Positions 35,149-46,428 of a stretch of DNA of 64,000 nt are shown in pieces. The translations under genes were made by a program, and so were the position numbers. Source of the stretch: Simkaniaceae bacterium (GTDB taxonomy: Bacteria; Chlamydiota; Chlamydiia; Chlamydiales; JACRBE01); assembly GCA_021734805.1 (NCBI GenBank), contig JAIPIG010000005.1, positions 29-64,028 on the forward strand. The letters are read 5' to 3'. The notes beneath the pieces were generated by a model. It saw only the letters and a program-made list of their open reading frames with translations. It had not been told where the DNA came from and did not search any database. The first letter of the stretch is position 1; every line of letters starts with the position of its first letter.

Positions 35149-35327
35149 GGCGTTGTTGCATAAATTCATTTTCACCTAACATGCTCATTATTAGTTTTTA
35201 CCACAGAGAGCACAGAGGCACCGGAATGCGCATTTTCTTGATTTTTTCTGTGTACTCTGTGCTCTCCGTGGTTGTTAAAGTCCTTATGGTCAATAACCTG
35301 ATAGTTTATCGAGTTATGCAATAAAGC
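35149..35327 (+). mobile_element. MITE-like family C, copy 1, with a 10-bp flanking duplication
   Basis: TIRs gcgttgttgcataa / ttatgcaataaagc. Internal inverted repeat ccacagagagcacagag ... ctctgtgctctccgtgg. Flanked by attagagcat at 35139-35148 and 35328-35337. Confidence 0.85.
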
Positions 35328-35436
35328 ATTAGAGCATCATCATTTTTCAATGTTATTAAAGAAATGTGAGTCCATACAAAATAGAGTAATTGGTTTTGGG
35401 TTTATTTTGAATACTTCTTCACAAGAAAATCTCTTT

Positions 35437-35611
35437 TATACCGAAATAAATTGAAGAATTGGTTTTTATCTTCGCCGGCATCTTCGATTTTTTACCCTTA
35501 ATTTTTTGACCTATCTTCAATAGGGTCAAAAAATTAAGCCGGCTAAAGCCTGATAAAAATTCGAAGCGCCATCAAAGCTAAAACCCCAATTCTTCAACTC
35601 ATTTCGGTATA
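35437..35611. repeat. MITE-like family A, intact copy
   Basis: About 26-bp TIRs tataccgaaataaattgaagaattgg / ccaattcttcaactcatttcggtata. This copy serves as the reference empty site for the nested insertion at 63.6 kb. Confidence 0.9.
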
Positions 35612-35622
35612 GCTCGCATTTC

Positions 35623-36045
35623 TCACAAAGTTGGAGATGAGCACAGCTTTGTTTTTTCAAGAATCTCTTCGATCCAATAATCGTAATAATTGAGGTATTC
35701 TTCTAATACGTCTTTAAACTCCGGATAGCTAATTTCATATTCAACCGGCATTGTTAAAGTGAGGGTTTGGGTGTCCGGTTTAAGGCCGAGTGTGCTCGAG
35801 CCCGTCCCTTGCCCCAGATAGTTGGCGTTCAATAGAAAGAGGAGGAGCGGCTCAGCATCATTTTCGGGAAGCACTCCGACGGAGCCATGCAATAAAAATC
35901 CCCTTTCGGTCATCAACAAATGAATGGAGCGATGATCTAGATCGAGCGAAAATATTTTAGCTCCCGGTTTTTCATATAAGTCTGCTAATCCATACTCGAT
36001 TGCGAATTTATTCAGATATTGTTCTATCACAACTTCGGTAATCAC
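35623..36045 (-). CDS. class I T3SS chaperone (CesT/SycE/Scc-like)
   Basis: 140 aa, acidic. Typical pattern ...LLLFLLNANYLGQGTGSSTLGLKPDTQTLTLTMPV... GTG start with SD AAGAGGTG. Transcribed divergently from the translocator locus. Confidence 0.65.
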   Translation of the reverse strand: MITEVVIEQYLNKFAIEYGLADLYEKPGAKIFSLDLDHRSIHLLMTERGFLLHGSVGVLPENDAEPLLLFLLNANYLGQGTGSSTLGLKPDTQTLTLTMPVEYEISYPEFKDVLEEYLNYYDYWIEEILEKTKLCSSPTL

Positions 36046-43779: not shown

Positions 43780-43901
43780 TAAACATTTTAACCCATTGAT
43801 AATAAGCCGGTTACGCTTTGGTGTGACCGGCTTATTTGCTTACTATTTAAAAAGATTTTTGTTATAATAGATATAAGGGATAATAAGGGTAATTATAATT
43901 T

Positions 43902-46223
43902 ATGGCTAGTCGTGCTTTAACAGGTACTTTAGATCTGACGAGAGTAGGCTCTATTGATCTTCCCGAGATCAAGATTATGGTCCGCTCCGGCTATTCAAGG
44001 GGGTATTCTTGTGACCGCAATGTGACGGAAGAAGCTGAGGCTAAGGTGAATCAATGCTATCGACAAGCCATTGTCGAAGTTCTCTTTTCAGATCCTGCAT
44101 TTAAAGCGTATTTTGATGGAGACGATGTTCCGACAAGTCTTCTTCGGCCTAAGACCAATGTCAATGTCAACTTCTCTAACGGTCTTATCACCATTAGAAG
44201 GGGTGAAGAAATAACAACGCGACAGATCCATGAATTTGATCTTCCCGAGGAGAGCATTGAAAAGTTCGCCTCTCTTAGCAAGGTGGCCATTGAGGCCTTT
44301 AATGGGGCTACGGGACGCAGTTTAAATAGCTATACTCAAGGAAGGATCTTACCCGATCGGCATATAGGGGGGGCTCTTTCTCCCTTGATCACAGCACCAA
44401 GACACCCCGAATCATTTGATCGGAGTGAATTACCCCTCACTAATATCAATCAAATCTCAGAAAATCTTGCTCGTGATTTAGCCCAATGCCGCTCACCGAA
44501 AGAGGCTAAAATGCTACTCTCACAGACGCGCTATGCGACTGTAATGATGCATGAATATCAGGCGATCTTTAGCTCTTTACAAGACCGCTATTCAATTGCT
44601 TTAGCGCGTATCGATCATCAGATTGAAAAAGAGAGCGATCCTGCCAAGCTAAGAATGTTGCAAGTCAGCCGTAAACCCATGCAAGAGAAGCTCGATCGAG
44701 TTAAGAATATGAAAACGCATATCGATCATCTCGATTGCTATGCGATCTACAACGTTTTAAAAGCAAATGCCCACTTACATGAGTCGGCTTCCCGAGAGGG
44801 ATTTATTTTAGGACCTTCGGATTCTAAGCGCGTTGAAGCGGTCCATCAATTATATCAAACGACACTTGAAGATCATAAAGCAACGAATGTAAGCGGTTGG
44901 TTTTGGAAGACGACTATTGATAATAATAGTGAAAAGAGAGAGCAGTATGCGAAGAAAGTGAGCCACATGCTCTTTACGACGCTACATGACAAATACCCCC
45001 ACGTAGGAAGAAATGAGCAGCAGACATTTGAGGAGGCGATTGTTCTCAGCGCTTCTAAGTTGATGACAAGTCTTGGTCGGCGCGATGCAGGGTTTTTAGG
45101 GTTACCTCAAGGGCTATTCTCAGAGCTTGGTCCTGAAGTTGAGCATTATTTGAAAGAAGCGCATGAAAAGGCGACAGCCTATGCATTCGAGCATGCTAAA
45201 GAGGCCCTGACTGAGAGCACAGAGCTTGAAGATGGAGAAGAAGCGGTCTCTTTTGCAATGAAAGGCGGCTCGCTTCAGGTTGTTACGTCAAGCGGAACGA
45301 GCATGGATAACGGATTTGCTCGCATTGTACAATCTTCAAAATGGGGACTCAAAGACCTGACTTCGGGGAAAGCGCTGCTCAACCAACGATTTACGGATTG
45401 GCATAGTTCCTTTGCGACACAAAAATGGTATCGTGAACAGTTTGAAAGCCGCATAGGAGAAACATTTGACGCTCGCCTCGTTGCCGATCATACGGAAGAG
45501 CTCGAGCACCTCGCTGAGTTAACCGATGAGCGTGAGCGCTTGATTGAGGTTAGGGATCCAAGTAGGCCGGATAACGCCTTTAGACTTCCTCCGCTTCTTT
45601 TGCCCGCGATGAGGGAAGAGGCGTCAGAGCTCGGCGATGACACAGACTCAAGGGCCGGTTCACGAGAAGAAGTAAGATCGCGCGCGGTTTCTCTACCAAA
45701 TAGTGACGGCTCTCTTCTATCAAGACGCAGCCGAGCCACAGGAATACCTCCTGCCCCACTTTCTGAAGAGGCTTCTGATAGGGGTGATGATGCAATGTCT
45801 ATAGCCGCTTCAAGTCACCGAGATCAAGTGCCGGCAGATGTTGATGGCACAGTGTCAGATGAAGGCGAGGAATTACCTTTCATAGCCGACTTTAAAGCAG
45901 ATGAGACTTCGGTAGACGATGAGATCGTTGCATCCGGAACTAACTTTGAAGCGCGAATGGGGATTGACCGTGAGAGCGGCGCTCCAAGATTTAGAGAGGC
46001 TTTACCGGCACATAGCGGCGCCGGGGCTGAGAGTGTTGATATGAATTTAGAGGCGACTCGTGAGCGTGCGGAAAGTTTAAGTGCTAGTGATCATGAAGGC
46101 ATCTCTTTTGATGATCGGGCTCTAGAAAATAGCAGTACCGGGGAAAGGCCTTTAAATGCTGCAGAAAGAGCAAGAGCCGAAGGGGATCGACGTATTGATT
46201 TAGATCAATATTTAAGATCCTAG
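43902..46223 (+). CDS. large hypothetical protein (773 aa), T3S effector candidate
   Basis: Last gene of the locus and preceded by the same leader box. No signal peptide. The C-terminal third is acidic, Ser/Arg-rich and low in complexity, with the word EEAS(E/D)xGDD repeated. Confidence 0.5.
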   Translation: MASRALTGTLDLTRVGSIDLPEIKIMVRSGYSRGYSCDRNVTEEAEAKVNQCYRQAIVEVLFSDPAFKAYFDGDDVPTSLLRPKTNVNVNFSNGLITIRRGEEITTRQIHEFDLPEESIEKFASLSKVAIEAFNGATGRSLNSYTQGRILPDRHIGGALSPLITAPRHPESFDRSELPLTNINQISENLARDLAQCRSPKEAKMLLSQTRYATVMMHEYQAIFSSLQDRYSIALARIDHQIEKESDPAKLRMLQVSRKPMQEKLDRVKNMKTHIDHLDCYAIYNVLKANAHLHESASREGFILGPSDSKRVEAVHQLYQTTLEDHKATNVSGWFWKTTIDNNSEKREQYAKKVSHMLFTTLHDKYPHVGRNEQQTFEEAIVLSASKLMTSLGRRDAGFLGLPQGLFSELGPEVEHYLKEAHEKATAYAFEHAKEALTESTELEDGEEAVSFAMKGGSLQVVTSSGTSMDNGFARIVQSSKWGLKDLTSGKALLNQRFTDWHSSFATQKWYREQFESRIGETFDARLVADHTEELEHLAELTDERERLIEVRDPSRPDNAFRLPPLLLPAMREEASELGDDTDSRAGSREEVRSRAVSLPNSDGSLLSRRSRATGIPPAPLSEEASDRGDDAMSIAASSHRDQVPADVDGTVSDEGEELPFIADFKADETSVDDEIVASGTNFEARMGIDRESGAPRFREALPAHSGAGAESVDMNLEATRERAESLSASDHEGISFDDRALENSSTGERPLNAAERARAEGDRRIDLDQYLRS

Positions 46224-46258
46224 TATAGCGTTTCATTAAAATATTATCAGTCTGCGCC

Positions 46259-46428
46259 GGCGTTATTGCATAATTCATTTTTATCTAACATGCTCATTAT
46301 TAGTTTTTACCACAGAGTTCACAGAGACACCGGAATGCGCATTTTCTTGATTTTTCTCTGTGCTCTCTGTGGTTGTTAAAATCCTTATGGTCAACAACCT
46401 GATAGTTTATCGAATGATGCAACAAATC
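46259..46428 (+). repeat. MITE-like family C, copy 2 (same orientation as copy 1)
   Basis: Aligns end to end with 35149-35327 (ggcgttattgcataattcattt ... ccacagagttcacagag ... ctctgtgctctctgtgg ... atcgaatgatgcaacaaatc). No clear TSD. Confidence 0.85.

Follow-up and report, generated by a model that had tools for sequence, protein, structure and literature searches.

A direct pair of MITE-like repeats flanking a type III secretion-associated gene block in a Simkaniaceae bacterium most probably arose by separate intergenic insertions

The 64-kb stretch of DNA analysed here (the window) carries, between sctD and the clpX-clpP-tig genes, an 11-kb block of genes associated with type III secretion (T3SS), and two similar copies of a short repeat (family C) stand near its two ends (Table 1). 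An earlier note on this DNA had listed the genes between the two repeats, placed the block between sctD and clpX-clpP-tig and associated it with T3SS. All of this is upheld, and the identity of the bordering genes is established by the CdsD domains of SctD, for which 954 homologs were found, and by Pfam.

Table 1. Genes and repeats of the sctD-to-clpX region (window positions).
Feature	Position	Strand	Remarks
sctD, CdsD-type inner-membrane ring protein, 592 aa	33231-35009	-	Pfam FHA, Yop-YscD_cpl, CdsD_PD1, CdsD_PD2, CdsD_C
Target-site duplication TTAGAGCAT, left half	35140-35148		abuts end of left C copy
Family C MITE-like element, left copy	35149-35328	+	180 bp, delimited by homology to right copy
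Target-site duplication TTAGAGCAT, right half	35329-35337		abuts end of left C copy
Family A palindromic MITE	35437-35611		175 bp, TA-flanked; chaperone-sctD spacer, as left C copy
CesT-family class I chaperone, 140 aa	35623-36045	-	Pfam CesT (PF05932), E = 4e-9
Family B MITE	36059-36252		~194 bp, 5-bp duplication TTTAT; divergent spacer between chaperone gene and + strand operon
Three small helical proteins, 113/127/154 aa	36373-37565	+	orthologs in same order in L002, L003, L005
Three paralogs, 267/270/283 aa	37721-40326	+	family confined to this clade
140-aa helical protein	40408-40830	+	best-conserved block gene
596-aa putative major translocator	40888-42678	+	orthologs in L003, L014, L015, L016
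350-aa partner, putative minor translocator	42727-43779	+	position after 596-aa gene
773-aa fast-evolving protein, effector candidate	43902-46223	+	homologs at same position in relatives
Family C element, right copy	46259-46429	+	171 bp, 8-bp deletion in hairpin loop
clpX, clpP, tig	46539-50038	-	Pfam

The CesT-family protein scores 36.9 bits against PF05932 (cut-off 22) and is encoded directly upstream of sctD, which identifies it as a class I chaperone; a sequence search of the PDB with it returned nothing. Beyond this CesT match, no block protein, the three small helical ones included, matched a Pfam, NCBIfam or PDB profile. Among 1.84 billion proteins, the 270-aa paralog family accounts for just 30 representative clusters, and its copy number in relatives ranges from 2 to 7. 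AlphaFold predicts both the 140-aa protein and one of the 270-aa paralogs to be all-helical, in models of poor quality (pLDDT 59.7 and 44.6, respectively). The 140-aa protein shares 49-66% identity with its orthologs by tblastn and 51-68% in the alignment. Homologs of the 773-aa protein, picked up by tblastn in loci fetched via SctD and Tig, are 25-29% identical over the N-terminal 400 aa in L003, L014, L015 and L016, where their genes are convergent with clpX. A word-based homolog search with this protein returned only itself, as a partial sequence in GCA_021734195.1, and no record matched the full-length protein exactly.

The 596-aa protein has hydrophobic segments at residues 140-172, 208-226 and 442-460 (Kyte-Doolittle score of at least 1.87), and in the 350-aa protein no hydrophobic segment was found at a score of at least 1.5. 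Neither matches any known translocator family among the Pfam, NCBIfam and PDB profiles, and their assignment as putative translocators remains a positional one. The block resembles the lcrGVH-yopBD genes of Yersinia and the scc2-CT577-copB-copD genes of Chlamydia in that a large protein with predicted hydrophobic hairpin segments (596 aa) comes before a smaller helical one (350 aa), in that helical proteins of secreted type precede the pair, and in that injectisome genes adjoin. It differs from both in that its genes match no SseC/YopB, IpaB or other family, and in that 35623-46223 contains no gene for a TPR class II chaperone; the only TPR-like protein nearby is a 142-aa product of the sctD operon (32264-32692). 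Between two strains, SNPs cluster at the 3' end of the 596-aa gene.

On the minus strand, the left border follows the order CesT-type chaperone, sctD, DUF5398, needle-size protein, TPR protein and sctN, as in the chlamydial cluster CT663 (Scc4) - CT664 (CdsD) - ... - CdsN - CdsQ - Pkn5 - CdsC, where we take CT664 to be CdsD from the C. trachomatis locus tags. CT663 is described as a CesT-like chaperone (PMC2734247, PMC7692554). The likeness of the present chaperone to Scc4 is one of position and CesT profile, and the arrangement differs from the chlamydial cluster in that two MITEs widen the chaperone-sctD spacer to 613 bp.

The two C copies have the same orientation and align end to end, as the earlier note had proposed; the alignment counts 13 mismatches and 9 gap columns beside 158 identical ones (87.8% identity; blastn E ~1e-59) and includes identical runs of 33 and 28 bp. 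A 47-nt core pattern of the element matches only the two C sites in the window and was matched in none of 100 shuffles, and a profile search (nhmmer --max) found no third copy in the 64 kb. The left copy begins with GGCGTTGTTGCATAA and ends with TTATGCAATAAAGCA, and these termini form imperfect inverted repeats of 15 bp, 12 of whose positions are complementary; at the right copy the terminus has degenerated further. A central 18-bp hairpin is formed in the left copy by ACCACAGAGAGCACAGAG and CTCTGTGCTCTCCGTGGT. In the predicted DNA fold of both copies, terminus pairs with terminus and the 18-bp stem forms (z = -3.6 each). Both copies sit in intergenic spacers, with no overlap with the genes of a crude gene map. 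A 64-aa open reading frame on the minus strand (46084-46278) reaches 20 bp into the right copy from its left end.

The left copy is flanked at both ends, as these are set by homology to the right copy, by a perfect 9-bp duplication, TTAGAGCAT. A 9-10-mer is common to the two flanks; a shared 9-mer located anywhere arose in 89 of 20,000 shuffled flank pairs, and chance sharing at the exact junctions would be far rarer than that. No target duplication can be recognised at the right copy, whose flanks are GTCTGCGCC and GATCGGAAG. On the outer sides of the pair, TTAGAGCAT to the left of the left copy and GATCGGAAG to the right of the right copy are unmatched. The terminal inverted repeats, the hairpin and the 9-bp target duplication at one copy bear out the description of family C as MITE-like; counting against it are the number of known copies, two, when genome-wide multiplicity is a hallmark of MITEs, and the missing duplication at the right one. 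No C-like termini occur elsewhere in the 64-kb window, and no autonomous element with matching ends was found there. The element matches no Rfam family, with sub-threshold generic-hairpin matches only, and no plasmid in PLSDB. Its 20-nt loop core, CCGGAATGCGCATTTTCTTG, hits four loci in genome_contigs, all of them 20-30-nt chance matches in unrelated organisms, and two loci in metagenome_contigs, again chance matches in unrelated organisms; the organism of the window is itself absent from both collections. A Logan contig (SRR12088349_174639), 100% identical to window 46393-50184, stops 37 bp within the right copy, which hints weakly at further dispersed copies.

Family C is accompanied by other elements of this kind. 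Families A and B are indeed present at the left junction, as had been reported, and one B element is nested inside an A copy. Six of the nine window spacers that are at least 200 bp long and hold no RNA gene are occupied by families A, B and C, and it is thus unremarkable that C should flank the block by chance. The fragment of a fourth family described at the right junction (46471-46486) could not be confirmed as a repeat, its sequence being unique in the window. An imperfect inverted counterpart of it lies at 46520-46536.

The repeats had been taken to delimit a lineage-specific insertion, and this view does not survive comparison with relatives, the very comparison that the earlier note had named as able to refute it. 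The same layout occurs in four relatives whose SctD proteins are 60-62% identical to the one studied here, in the order sctD, chaperone, three small genes, 270-aa paralog family, 140-aa gene, 596/350-aa pair and 773-aa homolog, followed by convergent clpX-clpP-tig. In L003, orthologs of all 11 block genes lie beside sctD with order and orientation unchanged, and L002 and L005 carry the chaperone, the three small genes and seven and six paralogs, respectively. In L014, L015 and L016, tig-clpP-clpX and the 773-aa homolog converge, the homolog being preceded by the 350-, 596- and 140-aa orthologs, and these right-border genes lie on the same contig as the organism's own sctD. Even in L006, whose SctD is 54% identical, three small genes (119, 130 and 149 aa) occupy the corresponding position, and of these tblastn matches only the counterpart of the 154-aa protein. 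Across ~150 kb of the relatives' loci (L002-L007, L014-L016 and L019), C-like DNA was absent by both blastn and profile search, the relatives compared being distant ones (~60% SctD identity). None of the four relatives has an empty site between sctD and clpX, the cargo being present in all. The spacers that hold the C copies are enlarged: between the chaperone gene and sctD lie 613 bp, compared with 65-84 bp in five relatives (L002, L003, L005, L006 and L019), and between clpX and the 773-aa gene 315 bp, compared with 20-107 bp in three. Once C and A are subtracted, ~170 bp of the left spacer is left over and is not accounted for.

Since relatives that lack the repeats share the block and its borders, the C copies were inserted later and separately and do not form the edges of a cassette. 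Our verdict is that they are ordinary intergenic MITE insertions, and it is very likely that family C is a non-autonomous MITE that landed twice, independently, in spacers of an old, vertically inherited locus in which the block was already present. The 11-kb block, with the same borders, would have existed in the common ancestor with the relatives of 60-62% SctD identity; one C copy would then have entered between the CesT-type chaperone gene and sctD, and the other the spacer in which the 773-aa gene and clpX converge, presumably as neutral insertions. The element is probably mobilised in trans by a transposase whose gene lies elsewhere in the genome and which makes the 9-bp target duplication. 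With the block ancestral and its borders unchanged, the repeats neither brought it in nor mark its limits. The earlier note's claim that the pair encloses exactly the accessory block stands as far as the listed genes do lie inside, and depends on definition at the left end, where the C copy splits the conserved chaperone-sctD pair and therefore marks no border between core and accessory genes. Its fallback suggestion, that the repeats simply mark intergenic junk, fits the evidence.

It is hardly credible, by comparison, that the 11-kb block came in between sctD and clpX as a lineage-specific insertion, carried by a composite, transposon-like cassette with the C copies as its ends. Direct copies on both sides of genes without known families, and a 270-aa family limited to a narrow clade, would suit such an origin. 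The locus shares with composite transposons and repeat-flanked islands of the Tn5/Tn10 type that two copies of a mobile element surround a multi-gene block. As an origin, however, it is already refuted by the conserved synteny, with block and both borders present in four relatives that lack C. Furthermore, the left copy has a target duplication of its own and splits a conserved gene pair, and the unmatched outer flanks, like the non-autonomous nature of the C elements, set the pair apart from Tn5/Tn10-type composites, which it also fails to resemble in that the block stands at the same site in repeat-free relatives. Nor is there a compositional anomaly: the block has a GC content of 42.7%, against 43.9% in the rest of the window (p = 0.16), and a GC3 of 41.4%, against 43.3% (p = 0.09), neither difference being significant. 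By GC and GC3, the compositional check proposed in the earlier note finds inside and outside alike. The present locus could be mistaken for a cassette of this kind, in that a repeat pair around unannotated genes resembles a mobile island, yet synteny dates the block and its borders to before the repeats. We see little reason, either, to regard the pair as an intergenic segment that was duplicated locally, or as a conserved regulatory box in both spacers. The small number of known copies and the missing duplication at the right one would be explained in this way, but the terminal inverted repeats and the perfect 9-bp duplication around the left copy point to transposition, the element is missing from both orthologous spacers in all relatives, and two further families in the window bear the clear marks of MITEs, a nested insertion among them.

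Two further readings concern what the repeats may do now. Co-option of the C copies as cis-acting RNA or DNA signals is very unlikely; the left copy could for instance supply a chaperone-sctD transcript with a hairpin for stabilisation, attenuation or processing, and the right one could be a barrier that separates clpX from the convergent 773-aa gene. Consistent with such a role, a strong hairpin is kept in both copies, and the left copy, which together with the A element lies inside a spacer that is short (65-84 bp) and operon-like in relatives, is identical in a second strain (L001/L018). This identity is, however, expected anyway at the 99.7% overall identity of the two strains, promoter and terminator scans of both junctions did not exceed what shuffled sequence gives, the hairpin is not followed by a T-run, and Rfam has no match. 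Somewhat more doubtful still is that, around an ancestral block, the direct repeats (171-180 bp) now serve as substrates of homologous recombination, so that the translocator block would now and then be deleted or excised, or exchanged between strains. Their orientation and the identical runs of 33 and 28 bp would allow this, runs of that length being near the minimum for RecA-type recombination in E. coli. Against it, the copies are just 88% identical, two independent assemblies are undeleted at the junctions that they cover (L018 the left, L017 the right), and the left copy still has its target duplication intact, which shows that it has exchanged no flanks since insertion; deletion would, moreover, cost an organism that is obligately intracellular the only translocator-like genes seen near its injectisome genes. 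That the C copies loop out the whole translocator/effector block at low frequency, in a circle closed on one C copy, we consider highly improbable. If true, it would create variants without T3SS translocators, or a vehicle for swapping a fast-evolving block between co-infecting strains, and the SNP cluster in the 596-aa gene would be a trace of such exchange.

The comparison establishes how a conserved sctD-to-clpX slot is built in a Simkaniaceae/Rhabdochlamydiaceae clade, a slot filled with clade-specific, probably secreted proteins in variable copy number. As for the repeats, well-known bacterial MITEs are the Correia elements of Neisseria and the Rickettsia palindromic elements. Family C resembles bacterial MITEs in being small (171-180 bp) and non-coding, in its terminal inverted repeats, palindromic core and target-site duplication, and in its place in intergenic spacers of a compact genome beside other MITE families; it differs in having no sequence relation to described families, by Rfam and plasmid searches. 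A literature search found no paper describing MITEs in Chlamydiae and nothing on 'Amphrikana'. Three MITE families, with three different types of target duplication, are thus recorded here in one environmental chlamydial genome.

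The two family C copies, MITE-like repeats that the earlier note had placed in the same orientation on either side of the T3SS-associated genes, are confirmed: alignment, core pattern and profile agree on their places, their strand and their end-to-end homology. The alignment has 158 identical columns, 13 mismatches and 9 gap columns, eight of which form a single indel in the hairpin loop. A 47-nt core pattern (≤3 mismatches) occurs at only two sites in the window and in none of 100 shuffles, and a profile built from both copies found no third one in the 64-kb window (nhmmer --max). 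The termini, GGCGTTGTTGCATAA and TTATGCAATAAAGCA, are imperfect inverted repeats (12 of 15 positions complementary) and the centre holds an 18-bp stem, ACCACAGAGAGCACAGAG / CTCTGTGCTCTCCGTGGT; termini and stem are paired in both copies in single-strand DNA folding (z = −3.58 and −3.56). Neither copy matches an Rfam family, and promoter- or terminator-like sites at both C junctions show no excess over shuffled sequence. The 9-mer TTAGAGCAT lies on either side of the left copy (35140-35148 and 35329-35337), abutting exactly the boundaries set independently by homology to the right copy, and this duplication is a transposition signature at that very site. The right copy, flanked by GTCTGCGCC and GATCGGAAG, shows no target duplication.

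The gene content between the copies matches the earlier list, and Pfam matches uphold sctD (through CdsD-specific domains) and clpX-clpP-tig as the neighbours; Pfam also identifies sctN in the window and assigns the 140-aa minus-strand protein to the CesT-family chaperones. A search with SctD returned a 100% identical partial protein in the MAG GCA_021734195.1 (NCBI label Simkaniaceae bacterium), whose 11,363-bp contig corresponds to window 33910-45272 (99.71% identical, with 33 mismatches). The left C copy, like the A and B elements, occurs there at the matching position. The next best SctD homologs are only 60-62% identical, and their neighbourhoods served for the left-side comparison. In L003, a locus from Logan SRR32456864, orthologs of all 11 block genes lie beside sctD with order and orientation kept: the chaperone (48% identity), the small helical proteins (36%, 46% and 64%), the 270-aa family paralogs (46%, 35% and 31%), the helical 140-aa protein (57%), and the 596-aa (35%), 350-aa (31%) and 773-aa proteins (29% over aa 60-442). 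The chaperone and three small genes are accompanied by 7 paralogs of the 270-aa family in L002 (ENA ERZ28669879) and by 6 in L005 (GCA_030408475.1, labelled Rhabdochlamydiaceae). In the more distant L006 (SctD 54%), the chaperone and three small genes keep their positions, and only the 154-aa one of the small genes is recognisable by tblastn. The right side was compared through the loci around the closest Tig homologs, three of which (L014, L015 and L016) share contigs with the relatives' SctD genes. In all three, tig-clpP-clpX is convergent with a 773-aa homolog preceded by 350-, 596- and 140-aa orthologs, and in ERZ26692719 the whole tig-to-sctD interval lies on a single 22-kb contig. No C-like DNA was found in the relatives' loci by blastn (word size 7) or profile search.

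The spacer between chaperone and sctD measures 65, 75, 74, 69 and 84 bp in L002, L003, L005, L006 and L019 (ERZ26692719 contig_3), whereas in the window it reaches 613 bp, with the left C copy and one family A element inside it. Similarly, clpX and the 773-aa homolog are separated by 39, 107 and 20 bp in L014, L015 and L016 and by 315 bp here, 171 bp of which is C. Both C copies are therefore additional DNA in spacers that are short elsewhere. The left one separates chaperone and sctD, which are adjacent in every relative examined; the injectisome operon and the plus-strand operon actually meet at the divergent spacer 36046-36372, where a copy of another MITE, family B, sits. About 170 bp of the chaperone-sctD spacer (35010-35139 and 35338-35436) is left over after C, A and the relatives' spacer length, and has no match elsewhere in the window. 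The sctD-clpX slot, from record coordinates, is ~11.5 kb in the window, ~13 kb in ERZ26692719, with 823- and 231-aa genes gained through a local inversion, and 24-25 kb in two Rhabdochlamydiaceae-labelled relatives, with more paralogs and a duplicated 596/350 pair.

The proposal that the C copies delimit a lineage-specific cassette or insertion is refuted by the observation named beforehand as counting against it, namely that relatives share the block and its borders without the repeats. The block is specific to the clade, but not to this one lineage. Nor did a compositional contrast appear: block genes have 42.7% GC and 41.4% GC3, the other 41 window genes 43.9% and 43.3%, and neither difference is significant (Mann-Whitney, p = 0.16 and p = 0.09). 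Nothing in the composition suggests a foreign origin of the block. The C pair instead most likely reflects ordinary insertions of a MITE into an environmental chlamydial genome rich in such elements. The sctD...clpX arrangement, comprising the chaperone, small helical proteins, 270-aa family, 140-aa protein, 596/350 pair and 773-aa protein, is ancestral to the clade. C, presumably mobilised in trans, transposed into the chaperone-sctD spacer, and would have done so after divergence from the sampled relatives and before the two 99.7%-identical strains split. The second copy, inserted between clpX and the 773-aa gene, may be older or may have lost one flank, and both would persist as neutral passengers. 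Recombination between the copies is physically possible, given their shared identical runs of 33 and 28 bp, but no evidence speaks for it: the left copy still has its duplication intact, which means that its flanks were not exchanged, and both independent assemblies have undeleted junctions.

Flanking by same-family repeats is unsurprising here. Eleven window spacers are ≥200 bp, including the tail after the last gene (63489-64000); two hold RNA genes (RNase P RNA and a tRNA), and six of the other nine hold A, B or C members. Family A, with termini TACCGAAATAAATTGAAG..., is flanked by TA at every copy, as expected for IS630/Tc1-mariner-type mobilisation. Its third copy (63511-63872) is split by a nested family B copy. 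Family B has termini CTCGACTTTGCAACTTTTTGG, a GC-rich central hairpin and 5-bp duplications, TTTAT at the copy beginning at 36059 and ATCAA at the nested one; the copy at 7385 is internally deleted. The features of A, B and C thus indicate a genome colonised by at least three MITE families differing in insertion chemistry. Long spacers largely exist because MITEs occupy them; any two same-family copies enclose something, with even odds of the same orientation. What had been called a family D fragment is present, but unique in the window. Immediately beyond the clpX stop codon, the site forms an imperfect inverted repeat, matching at 14 of 17 positions, that encloses an A/T-rich segment and nine consecutive G.

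Coordinates of features in the window and in loci of relatives
Feature	Position	Strand	Remark
Family C, left copy	35149-35328 (180 bp)	+	homology to right copy
Family C, right copy	46259-46429 (171 bp)	+	homology to left copy
Family A copies	10448-10622; 35437-35611; 63511-63650 + 63832-63872		175-bp palindromic MITE
Family B copies	36059-36252; 63651-63831; 7385-7515		MITE, about 194 bp
'Family D fragment' site	46471-46487 and 46520-46536		imperfect inverted repeat
RNase P RNA, class A	6102-6469	-	198.8 bits
tRNA gene	50138-50209	-	accounts for one long spacer
270-aa family arrays	window 37721-40326; L002 888-7494; L005 1188-7847; L003 5117-7868; L016 11594-13486		
Second 596/350-aa pair	L014 19289-21563; L015 19189-21566		diverged
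Inverted 154-aa ortholog region	L019 4817-8681		
1754-aa gene	18414-23678		
Tandem units	19930-20978		inside 1754-aa gene
1231-aa gene	11965-15660		
1180-aa gene	50574-54116		
1231-/1180-aa similarity pairs	14303-14354 / 52789-52840; 15394-15468 / 53874-53948		

One Logan contig (SRR12088349) matches window 46393-50184 at 100% identity and terminates within the tRNA gene. Its end 37 bp inside the right C copy, at a point with just an 18-mer in common with the left copy, is a weak hint of more C copies; coverage or strain variation could explain it equally well.

Apart from the chaperone, no block protein was assigned to a family by Pfam, NCBIfam or PDB profile searches, and AlphaFold models are helical with low confidence. 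In the 596-aa protein there are three to four hydrophobic segments, a feature of major translocators; the 350-aa protein has none at the threshold used. The designation as a T3SS translocator/effector locus is thus a reasonable but putative one, based on position. In Chlamydia trachomatis the pair corresponding to chaperone-sctD is CT663/Scc4 and CT664/CdsD. Published work describes CT663 as a CesT-like chaperone (PMC2734247, PMC7692554). Among 1.84 billion proteins, the 270-aa family accounts for only 30 representative clusters, and its helical paralogs form 2 to 7 tandem copies across relatives, just upstream of translocator-like genes. In L014 and L015 a second, translocator-like 596/350-aa pair lies upstream of the 140-aa gene, a Fic-domain gene lies at the distal end of the L005 paralog array, and in L019 the 154-aa ortholog lies on the opposite strand within the block, followed by the 823-aa and 231-aa genes, which lack window counterparts.

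Between the two strains, 8 of 12 compared genes are identical, including the covered part of sctD. Nineteen of the 33 differing positions over 11.4 kb fall in the 596-aa gene, causing 12 amino-acid changes, and 15 cluster in 246 bp at its 3' end (window 42400-42645). The cluster resembles a recombination tract or the effect of diversifying selection on a putative major translocator; strain mixing within the MAG could also produce it.

Elsewhere in the window, the very long 1754-aa gene, downstream of a pkn5-like gene, is presumably the secretin, judging from where it lies in the cluster. Its five diverged tandem units (period 243-261 bp) point to a domain of about 81-87 aa that is repeated. 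The 1231-aa and 1180-aa genes share short DNA similarities (77-83%) and are probably paralogs; the latter, beside tig, occupies the position of a SNF2-family helicase gene in relatives.
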